Shown: positions 24,093 through 37,739 of the stretch, one piece after another
How the letters are laid out: each line of letters starts with the position of its first letter
Position numbering within the stretch: the first letter of the stretch is position 1
DNA from: Thermoproteota archaeon
GTDB taxonomy: Archaea; Asgardarchaeota; Jordiarchaeia; Jordiarchaeales; Freyrarchaeaceae
NCBI GenBank assembly: GCA_029258835.1
Contig: JAPDJY010000018.1
Span: 1-38,607, forward strand
Direction of reading: 5' to 3'
Length of the DNA: 38,607 bases
Position numbers and translations under genes: made by a program
The notes under the pieces: model-generated
Database searches by the model: none
What the model saw: the letters and a program-made list of their open reading frames with translations, nothing else
What the model was told of the DNA's origin: nothing

Positions 24093-24371
24093 ATGCCGAA
24101 TATTACGCTTTCGGTTCCAAAGGAGCTGTATGAGAGGATGAAGAAGCATAGGGAGATCAGGTGGAGTGAAGTTGTTAGAAGGGCTATAGTGGAGTATCTG
24201 GAGAGGCTGGAGGGGGGTGGTCTTGAGGCTTCGAGCAAGGAGCTTCTCGGCATGGTTAAGGGGCTTGAGGAGAGAATAAAGAAGACGCCCCTAGAGAAGT
24301 ATGAGGCGTTCTTTGAGGATGCGAGGAGTGCGGAATGGAAACGCCTAGAGAGCTCTACGACACAAACGTAA
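24093..24371 (+). CDS. VapB-type RHH antitoxin
   Basis: [32 protein letters not shown]; overlaps the PIN gene; direct repeat TTACGTGT x2 at 24066-24082. Confidence 0.85.
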
Positions 24372-24667
24372 TCATAGAGGCGTTGAAGGAAGGAAGAAAG
24401 ATAAATGGGTACACGACGATCCTGAACCTAGTAGAGTTCCCGAAAGGACTTGAAGTCGAACTAGGAGTGTTGACTCCGTCGATCAAGGACTACCTTCTCG
24501 CCATCGAAATCTCGCAGACAATGGTGGAGCAGGGGACGCCAATCCCAGCAGTAGACACCGTAATATCTGCAGTCGCAATAAACAGAAAGCTTACCCTAGT
24601 AACCAAAGACAAACACTTCACCCTCGTACAGAGAGCATACCCAGAGCTAAAAATCAAGAGAGAATAA
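24335..24667 (+). CDS. vapC: VapC PIN-domain toxin (intact)
   Basis: [30 protein letters not shown]. Confidence 0.9.
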
Positions 24668-25413: not shown

Positions 25414-25692
25414 TTGATGAAGGCTAAAACTAGCGTGTACGTGGACAGGGATCTTTGGGAGAAGTTTAAGGTTCTGTCAGCTAGCAGGAAAACTGATGTA
25501 AGCAGTCTTTTAAAGGAGTTAATAAGGGAGGAGACGATGGAACAGCTTGACGAGGCTCTCTCAGAGCTCGGCTTGGAGAGCGGCGAGCTAGACTTTGAAC
25601 CTGTAAAGGTTTCTAAGCCTGTAAGTGGGCTGGTTAGGGTGATGAGAGACGAGAGGAGAGACGGTATATCTGGACTCCAGTGCGATTATTAA
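25414..25692 (+). CDS. VapB-type RHH antitoxin (intact)
   Basis: KTSVYVDRDLWEKFK..VSSLLKELIREE; C-terminal LVRVMRDERR overlaps the PIN gene. Confidence 0.8.
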   Translation: MMKAKTSVYVDRDLWEKFKVLSASRKTDVSSLLKELIREETMEQLDEALSELGLESGELDFEPVKVSKPVSGLVRVMRDERRDGISGLQCDY

Positions 25693-26298
25693 GAGATATT
25701 TTTCCGAGAAGGGAAGCAGTAGAGTGAGAGAGACATACTTGGAAGCTTACTCCGGTAAACTAACAGTATCCTACAGCATATGGAACATAGGCGAGGTTCC
25801 CGGCGTCATGGATAGAGCTAAAAGGCTTGGAATGATAAATGGCGAAGCTTACAGCACTGCTAGAAGCAGGTTTCTATCCGAGACGAGGCGGATGATCAGG
25901 CTTGGAATCGCCTTGCGAAACAGTTAAATATTTTGTATGTGTTTGTGAGTGCTGGTCTGGCCACAGGGTGGCCTAATGGGGTGGAGTCTTCGGATGTGGG
26001 GCTCCGGGGTTACCCCGAAAGCCCCATCAGAGGCCCATGCCTCGATGACGGGGAAACGCCTGACAGACCAACCACATTTACCCATAAAAACCTATCAAGC
26101 GTGAACCCCGTCCCCATACCCCTCAAAGTGAAGGTGCTGAGGGATGGCTGGAGGATCTTAGAGAAACACCACATATACGTAGCCGATGCTATACAGGTTT
26201 CCTCCGCTAAGCATGTACAAGCAGACATACTCCTCACAGGGGACAAGAAGCTGCATGATGTAGCCTTGAAGGAAGGAGTTAGAAGCGAGTTACTGTGA
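25649..26298 (+). pseudogene. vapC: VapC PIN toxin interrupted by the ~197-bp element; start codon reads ACG
   Basis: TVYLDSSAIIKRY..WNIGEV..RLGIA | insertion | VPIPLK..HIYVADAIQV..LLTGDKKL. Removing 25913-26109 restores one frame. Confidence 0.88.
25913..26109 (+). mobile_element. Non-autonomous mini-element copy 1, probable IS607- or IS200/IS605-derived (TnpB 3' end/omega-RNA)
   Basis: Aligns end to end with 37354-37552; disrupts vapC; no TIRs; CC at both junctions; remnant LRMWGSGVTPKAP..YQA-stop. Confidence 0.8.
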
Positions 26299-36846: not shown

Positions 36847-37199
36847 TTATAATGGGATGCCCTCCTTTAACGCTTGTTTTATCAGGGTATTACCTTTCCT
36901 CTTCATTTCTTCTATTTCATTTAGGGTGTAGGCGGAGACGTCTACTGGGATGGGTGTTTCCATCTGGTATTCAGGTATTCTGTCGAAGAATCTCTCATGC
37001 GAGCTTTCCCTTAGGATTAAGAGGACGTCGGTGTCGCTTTTCAACCCGTAATCCCCCTGGCGATAGAGCCGAAAAGGATCACACCGAGCACCTCCGGGTG
37101 TTTCTCCTTAAGCTTCTCAGCAGCCTTCTTCAACTCCCTAAGAAGAGCCCTCCTGCTCCTGTACAAGTGCCTTGCATAAATCGAGGATTTTTCGGGCAT
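36847..37199 (-). pseudogene. MNT antitoxin with a 1-nt frameshift in a G homopolymer
   Basis: ILFGSIARG | DYGLKSDTDVLLIL. One extra G in the G5 run (37053-37057) restores GSxARGD..SDxD. Confidence 0.82.
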
Positions 37200-37739
37200 A
37201 ATCCACCGCCTCCTCAGCGTCCTTTCTAGTGTAATAGTCCACGGGGCCCCGCTCTCAAACCCGTTAGGATACCTTGTCGGAATGTAATACCTATCAAGGA
37301 TCTTGGCTAAATCCATAACCTCCTCCACCCCGTAATTGGCTTAAAGAAACGCCTTGCGAAGCAGTTAAATGTTTGGTAGGTGTTTGGGGTGCTGGTTTGG
37401 CCACGGGGTGGCCTGTGGGTGGAGTCTTCGGATGTGGGGCTCTGGGGTTACCCCGAATGCTCCATTAGAGGCGTATGCCTCGATGACAGGGAAACGCTTG
37501 ACAGACCAAAATCTCCACATTTACCTATAAAAGCCTATCAAGCGTGAACCCCAATATTTTACTTACACTATGCCCCCAGCATTCAACCCTTAACCGCTCA
37601 CATAAAGCCTTAACAGCCTTCTCGGCGCATTGCTGGCTTAAAAAGCAACCCACTCGTAAATTCCCCCATTAAAAGACAGCTTTGCTGCCTCCAAATCCCT
37701 CTCCGCCTGCCTAAGCCAGTCTCTACTACGGTCCAACAC
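37138..37739 (-). pseudogene. HEPN gene disrupted by the mini-element, two frameshifts and a stop
   Basis: DRSRDWLRQAERDL / CFLSQQCAEKAVKAL..WGHSV | insertion | LDRYYIPTRYPNG / DYYTRKDAEEAV. Confidence 0.88.
37354..37552 (+). mobile_element. Non-autonomous mini-element copy 2, antisense inside the HEPN gene
   Basis: Same ends (TTGCGAA ... TATCAAGCGTGAACCCC), hairpins and CGCC left flank as copy 1. Confidence 0.8.

Follow-up and report, generated by a model that had tools for sequence, protein, structure and literature searches.

The window, a 38,607-nucleotide stretch of archaeal DNA, contains two copies of a short, protein-less mobile unit (hereafter the MITE). The MITE is a non-autonomous internal-deletion derivative of an element that encodes an HTH protein and TnpB and looks IS607-like, and it probably acts as an omega-RNA cassette. 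Copy A lies on the plus strand at 25913-26109 (197 nt; 25910-26109 if a preceding GCC is counted), within a PIN/VapC gene that is restored by its excision. Copy B, also on the plus strand, lies at 37354-37552 (199 nt; 37351-37552 if GCC is counted) in intergenic DNA; a nucleotidyltransferase-like ORF encoded on the minus strand (37041-37328) has copy B approximately 25 nt upstream of its start. The initial annotation of this DNA had placed the insert and its second copy at these same positions, and its estimate by eye of roughly 85% identity was near the computed value of 87%. It had also suggested a BLASTN search for further copies, and these are indeed present in the window's own assembly (91 contigs, 2.72 Mb). 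The MITE family there comprises 23 copies of approximately 200 bp with 83-92% identity, one of them clipped by a contig end, while seven further loci match MITE positions 79-200 only, every one of which is the 3' end of a tnpB gene. Alignment of the copies with their flanks revealed sharp edges: the left one reads GCCTTGCGAA... and the right one ...GTGAACCCC, and the flanking DNA is unrelated. The MITE is a genuine dispersed repeat, far above what chance would produce. No gene for an effector or transposase is found inside the 197-200-nt unit, the sole frame of which is a 38-codon remnant of the TnpB tail. Terminal inverted repeats are lacking, as first reported; the best end-to-end match is an imperfect 11-nt subterminal similarity.

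The MITE descends from a tnpB-bearing element. A full-length element with the same ends, which the initial annotation had named as a point to check, is present in the genome: it is 1420 bp long, and its best-preserved copy (G000:C9:45666-47085; L024:203-1622) carries a small HTH gene and tnpB. There are five full-length copies of this element with 79-82% mutual identity, plus two partial copies at contig ends. Among the five, only the C9 copy retains an intact tnpB frame. The C9 TnpB is a 394-aa protein with Pfam domains PF07282 and PF01385, and aligns to ISDra2 TnpB (8BF8) across the regions holding the D-E-D residues. Reading of this alignment places an Asp, a Glu and an Asp of C9 TnpB at the ISDra2 D-E-D positions. 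The C9 protein ends in ...LRMWGSGVTPKVPSEAYASMTGKRLTDQNHLPIKTYQA, and the MITE peptide that the initial annotation had likened to archaeal TnpB C-termini proves to be the actual end of this protein. Upstream of tnpB, every well-preserved parent copy contains a 58-aa ORF (L024:291-467 in the C9 element; 71-87% identical in copies C29, C37 and C2) that constitutes an HTH_17/MerR domain and shares 56% identity with the N-terminal part of serine recombinases encoded by the same genome. The ORF is similar to the DNA-binding domain of an IS607 serine recombinase and has no catalytic domain. Because of this resemblance to recombinase N-termini, the parent looks like an IS607-type element whose transposase has been cut down to its DNA-binding domain.

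The right 122 nt of the MITE are the 3' end of tnpB and occur in seven tnpB elements. In a gapped global alignment, the parts of the parent with a counterpart in the MITE consensus are positions 1-14, 1211-1234 and 1295-1420; smaller blocks of 6-7 nt in this alignment were dismissed as chance. Over the last 126 nt of the parent, 122 positions agree with the MITE consensus. In the window, the corresponding block of copy A (25988..26109, plus strand), which comprises an omega-RNA-like scaffold and the right end with its 3' tail GAACCCC, is 94% identical to C9 tnpB positions 1299-1420. Overall, MITE scaffolds are 78-94% identical to tnpB 3' ends. The left terminus agrees with that of the parent at 11 of its outermost 14 nt, after which comes a TATA-like box, TTAAAT in the MITE and TTATATA at the matching place in the parent. 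The kinship of the left ends is visible only in the multiple alignment and the gapped global alignment; direct BLAST of the left 80 nt of the MITE against the full-length elements returned nothing significant. The box was located at 25924..25929 (plus strand), near the left end as first annotated, with a BRE-like CGAAAC before it. It is found in all 23 copies, some with a one-base change, approximately 30 nt upstream of the first hairpin (H1), and is a putative promoter.

H1 (GGCCAC-AGG-GTGGCC, 25959..25973, plus strand) derives from the zinc-finger codons of tnpB, being homologous to a hairpin at parent positions 1211-1234. Its source lies approximately 85 nt further upstream in tnpB than the right-end block. 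The MITE lacks the approximately 57 nt that separate H1 from the CTTCGG block in the parent, a stretch containing the third RuvC motif. The deletion junctions are identical in all 23 copies. Because the copies have these junctions in common, a single deletion was followed by multiplication of the short form, which was therefore mobilised in trans. The earlier suggestion of an internal-deletion derivative that had kept its ends, promoter and RNA scaffold thus holds for the ends and the scaffold, while the promoter role of the box stands as a prediction.

The main rival to a guide-RNA function is that the MITE is an inert hitch-hiker, its ends being kept for the transposase, its inherited scaffold just carried along in the right end, and its RNA having no role. 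Excision of an IS607-type mini-element is known to need approximately 40 bp at the left end and 60 bp at the right (10.1101/2023.11.20.567912), so that part of the right end of the MITE may persist solely for the transposase. Such a history would also suit copies that, at 83-92% identity, are not recent, and a genome with a single intact tnpB. However, the MITE has kept approximately 122 nt of right end together with H1 from 85 nt upstream, while the intervening 57 nt were lost, and this selective retention is repeated in other genomes and MITE families. We therefore regard an inert hitch-hiker as rather unlikely.

The right-end block also preserves the end of the TnpB reading frame. In copy A, the frame from 25988 reads LRMWGSGVTPKAPSEAHASMTGKRLTDQPHLPIKTYQA and then reaches a TGA 5 nt before the right end, exactly as originally described. 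The parental stop is reached in frame by 10 of 20 copies, four of which read an unrelated peptide in part. In copy B and the majority of the others, the former TnpB tail carries a frameshift, and the synonymous differences between copies that had been pointed out earlier are no sign of coding. As its frame is disrupted so widely, the peptide of the TnpB tail is a fossil, and a coding role was rejected.

The same frameshifts bear on the suggestion that the MITE is a small protein gene or, alternatively, a host RNA of another class, such as a C/D-box or K-turn sRNA. Copy A does contain the 38-codon frame, and GATGA and CTGA motifs lie approximately 12 nt apart (26044-26063). The frame, however, is not maintained across the family, the CTGA sits in a covarying helix and becomes CTGG in relatives, and homology to tnpB 3' ends fully accounts for the sequence. 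Further, no Rfam release 15 family reaches its gathering threshold in the window, and over the parent scaffold none is matched even at E<=10, a search that covers HgcC and RAGATH-18 if these are in the release. Either assignment is scarcely credible.

The hairpins described in the initial annotation are all present in the window: besides H1, these are a nested GGGGC/GGGG..CCCC/GCCCC hairpin (25998-26025) and a CATC-A-GAGGC..GCCTC-GATG hairpin (26025-26047), both on the plus strand. RNAalifold, applied to 22 diverse sequences consisting of MITEs, full elements and relatives from two other genomes, predicted 26 pairs, 11 of them with compensatory changes. A long-range pairing, UAUGGGU/ACCCAUA, appears in single-sequence folds; it was not kept by RNAalifold on the diverse set and was discarded. 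A covariance model of the last 127 positions (R1) matches 30 family members and nine sister-family members in the genome, scoring 147.7 bits for the copy A block and 145.3 bits for copy B; when 151 genomes sampled from the phylum were searched, 7 contained matches. Among the 31 distinct matched sequences, in an alignment fitted to R1 and so favouring the structure, standard pairs occupy 94.8% of cells compared with 75.7% after shuffling, and both partners vary in 15 of 20 pairs, compared with 4-8 when the partners are slid by 1-3 columns. Covariation across copies and relatives, which had been named as a point to check, is strong, and shows the MITE scaffold to have a conserved fold.

Three helices have the best support. 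One is the CCCC/GGGG pairing (26022-26025/26050-26053) around the GAGGC hairpin (26030-26034/26039-26043). Another is this hairpin itself, which is swapped for GGGC/GCCC or AGCT-type stems in some members. The third is the terminal helix ACGC-UGA/UCA-GCGU (26056-26063/26095-26102, like the others on the plus strand), which leaves GAACCCC single-stranded beside the flank. H1 occurs in five compensatory versions: GGCCG/CGGCC, GGCCA/TGGCC, GGCTA/TAGCC, GGCTG/CAGCC and GGTCG/CGACC. A serine recombinase, working on double-stranded DNA, should need no covarying hairpins, which again speaks against an inert hitch-hiker. More in keeping with that alternative is the pattern within the 22 MITE copies alone, where double changes are found in only 3 of 38 pairs.

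The question of which strand is folded bears on a further alternative, in which the MITE encodes a regulatory RNA: a sense or antisense decoy that titrates TnpB or pairs with tnpB mRNA, similar to the sotRNAs of IS1341-type genes. The genome has approximately 29 scaffold copies per one intact nuclease gene, the scaffolds have 78-94% identity to tnpB 3' ends, and the minus strand is the more stably folded. In single-sequence folding, z-scores relative to shuffled sequences were modest, at -1.6 and -1.7 for the plus strand and -2.2 and -3.5 for the minus strand; it is the minus strand of 25960-26109 and of 37403-37552 that folds more stably than the plus strand by this measure. This leaves room for an antisense transcript of the MITE copies. 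Against a regulatory RNA, G-U pairs outnumber A-C pairs by 39 to 21 on the tnpB-sense strand, an excess that favours this strand only moderately, and the TATA-like box is positioned for sense transcription. Although nothing in the sequence distinguishes a decoy from a guide, we consider a regulatory RNA very unlikely.

At least two genes have been inactivated by insertion of the MITE; one encodes a VapC, the other a P-type ATPase. Copy A separates the N-terminal half (25655..25909, plus strand) from the C-terminal half (26110..26298, plus strand; Pfam PF01850) of the PIN/VapC gene, both halves being collinear with intact homologs, and its excision restores the ORF. Intact PIN homologs from five related genomes span the junction, and each of the five is longer there by one residue than the product of a 200-nt excision. 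The second gene, encoding the P-type ATPase, is split by the copy at C40:1630-1828. Its paralog on contig C3 aligns without gaps, and with a conserved Ala, only if GCC is retained. In the split ATPase gene (L004:1201-1999; G000:C40:1330-2128), the GCC restores the Ala in ...GVDEYY-A-DLLPHEK.... Both restored genes fit a GCC left behind, so the 197-nt unit is favoured. On the basis of these two reconstructed genes, the GCC fits best as part of the empty site, in agreement with the 197-bp boundaries first drawn for copy A.

The empty site would accordingly be read as ...A-Y-G-CC-flank, with CC at both junctions. At 52 insertion sites of the MITE family and its sister families, taken from two genomes, GCC is preceded by Y in 46 cases and by G in none, and A occupies position -2 in 28. 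The left-flank target of copy A is ATC-GCC (25907..25912, plus strand), a candidate TAM, the family consensus being A-Y-G-CC, with the CC repeated at the right end; the left-flank target of copy B is AAC-GCC (37348..37353, plus strand). The empty allele of the PIN site had no exact match in metagenome or genome contigs and that of the ATPase site none in metagenome contigs, and the genome contains no paralog of the PIN gene. A further MITE copy lies directly behind the ATG of a small membrane-protein gene (G000:C46:14183-14830), which has a 1-nt deletion relative to a paralog 5.5 kb away (C46:8371-8830). This copy was dropped as boundary evidence because the N-terminus of the paralog is too diverged and the gene is also frameshifted.

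The region of the window around the insertions is rich in toxin-antitoxin genes. An RHH antitoxin-like ORF (25414-25692) lies upstream of the PIN/VapC gene, the two forming a VapBC-like pair (25414-26298) in which the toxin is split by copy A. Other ORFs of toxin-antitoxin type are a PIN ORF at 24335-24667 and the nucleotidyltransferase-like ORF at 37041-37328.

The MITE displays several features of IS607-type elements: it has no terminal inverted repeat, no target duplication and CC at both junctions, the target GCC being taken from the two restored genes. None of six serine-recombinase elements inspected as a possible autonomous partner has these ends, and the intact IS607 copies of the assembly have other ends and a GG core. 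Of what was found, the locus most like an autonomous relative of the MITE families is a degenerate element (G000:C56:4390-6640), in which pieces of a serine recombinase, a disrupted tnpB and the right end ...GCTGAACCCC occur together. A strict IS200/IS605 PATE was rejected as a description of the MITE. Folds of the whole element place no hairpin within the first ~45 nt, and the two Y1 tnpA loci in the genome both have internal stops, neither being linked to MITE ends. With its HTH remnant and CC core, the parent looks IS607-like rather than IS200/IS605-like.

We propose that the MITE functions as an omega-RNA cassette in the following manner. The left-end box would drive a transcript of approximately 150 nt plus flank, which would serve as an omega RNA with the 16-20 nt to the right of GAACCCC as its guide. 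For copy A, the TnpB/omega-RNA rule predicts a guide at 26110..26129 (plus strand), the start of the PIN C-terminal half. The sole intact TnpB of the lineage, encoded on contig C9, would load the MITE RNA in trans, and the complex would cut a vacated site, recognised as A-Y-G-CC followed by a match to the guide. Recombination with an occupied copy would then restore the MITE, which would in this way share the retention benefit of the nuclease. Movement of the MITE is proposed to depend on a serine recombinase of IS607 type supplied in trans. The 16-mer guide of copy A is unique in the genome, all other matches having two mismatches, and the right flank of each MITE is likewise unique. Second-site guide targets were rejected, as only two-mismatch chance matches with no common flank were found.

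The same genome harbours more protein-less families of 265-330 nt that have the same termini and other TnpB-type scaffolds. Members with termini GCCTTGCG... and ...GCTGAACCCC are located at G000:C6:2925-3189, C33:16489-16753, C9:55301-55570 and C81:1759-2024, and at G000:C66:4879-5204, C20:22201-22528, C86:770-1083 and C5:35010-35290. Several of these sister families also keep a zinc-finger hairpin joined to a CTTCGG block. One pair of ends seems to serve several guide-RNA families. The design, a deletion that leaves a hairpin and the right end, recurs in other genomes and MITE families: another genome of the phylum, G014, contains a 238-nt derivative of this kind. G014 also has a 245-nt MITE family (L106-L117, several contigs) whose left 41 nt are 83-88% identical to the MITE left end and whose scaffold is unrelated, which suggests that left-end and scaffold parts are exchanged as modules.

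A tree of the right-end block shows MITEs and full elements interleaved. Within it (alignment A4), the full element IS_C22 (G000:C22:5958-7377) groups with two MITEs (C38:10920-11118 and C2:17727-17923) at 99/98 support, and the re-designed GGGC/GCCC hairpin is common to all three. Together, the interleaving and the common hairpin point to recombination between modules, or gene conversion, between MITEs and full elements. Further afield, the scaffold core has exact matches in Undinarchaeota and Archaeoglobaceae MAGs, two of the loci being protein-less. In an Undinarchaeota MAG, protein-less elements at L144:4439-4590 and L147:3750-3990 have the same scaffold core and a ...GAACCCC end. At L144, a second left-end-like sequence, CCTTGCGA, starts 2 nt past the right end, and may reflect a tandem or nested insertion.

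A bolder interpretation is that the MITE families together form a distributed guide library across the genome, with shared termini GCCTTGCG... and ...GAACCCC, different TnpB scaffolds that are each joined to a promoter-like left end of their own, exchange of left-end and scaffold modules by recombination, and an excess of approximately 30:1 over intact nucleases. We consider this unlikely and put it forward tentatively. If it were true, with the RNAs expressed and loaded, it would constitute a natural system in which single nucleases work with many guides carried by transposons, and a plausible stepping stone from one-guide TnpB elements to array-based CRISPR systems. The combination of one intact TnpB, approximately 29 scaffolds with different flanks, and a predicted TAM of A-Y-G-CC with a CC core makes archaeal trans-loading of omega RNA and IS607-type homing testable. 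The repeated loss of the 57 nt between H1 and the CTTCGG block suggests that this segment is dispensable, which would help the trimming of guide RNAs. For annotation, the orphan structured RNAs in the genome are copies of one transposon-derived family.

Earlier work has described stand-alone omega RNAs, PATEs that encode omega RNAs, and the formation of PATEs when the core is deleted. The stand-alone RNAs are known to function in trans (Altae-Tran et al. 2021, summarised in PMC10691335). Like the MITE, they consist of a scaffold without effector or transposase, coexist with effector elements that have matching ends, and take their guide from the flank. Unlike them, the MITE is archaeal, derives from an IS607-like HTH and TnpB element, and has a TATA-like box of the left end fused approximately 30 nt upstream of the scaffold; its activity in trans is predicted, by analogy with theirs. 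The PATE-like minimal IS200/IS605 elements of Geobacillus stearothermophilus often encode an omega RNA (PMC10055086), and archaeal PATEs, such as those of Haloquadratum walsbyi, arise through core deletion (PMC3119063). These elements resemble the MITE in their internal deletion, the retention of both ends, the lack of inverted repeats and target duplication, and in outnumbering their parents. They are of the Y1-transposase (IS605) type, with subterminal DNA hairpins and a TAM that lies wholly outside the element, whereas the MITE has no left-end hairpin, has CC at both junctions, and has a parent with the remnant of a serine-recombinase DNA-binding domain.

The closest parallels are found in the IS607 family (10.1101/2023.11.20.567912, PMC6188088), whose members, like the MITE, lack inverted repeats and target duplications and have their core dinucleotide in the junctions and in the target. 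In this family, including the CboIStron of Clostridium botulinum, tnpB is at the right and the omega RNA ends in the core dinucleotide, and a laboratory mini-IS lacking both genes has been mobilised in trans. The CboIStron has the target/TAM TGGG, the right end TCGG and a GG core at both ends, and position -3 was demonstrated experimentally to separate the empty from the occupied site (10.1101/2023.11.20.567912). By analogy, the counterpart pair in the MITE would be YGCC in the target and CCCC at the right end. The MITE and its parent differ from IS607 elements in having a CC core rather than GG, and in having the HTH as a separate small ORF rather than as part of a full serine recombinase. 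In contrast to the CboIStron, the MITE has no intron, is naturally amplified and has a promoter-like box. Particular to the present case are the IS607-like target logic with a CC core, a parent left with the HTH alone, the repeated loss of a single segment of the scaffold, and the ratio of 29 scaffolds to each intact nuclease gene.
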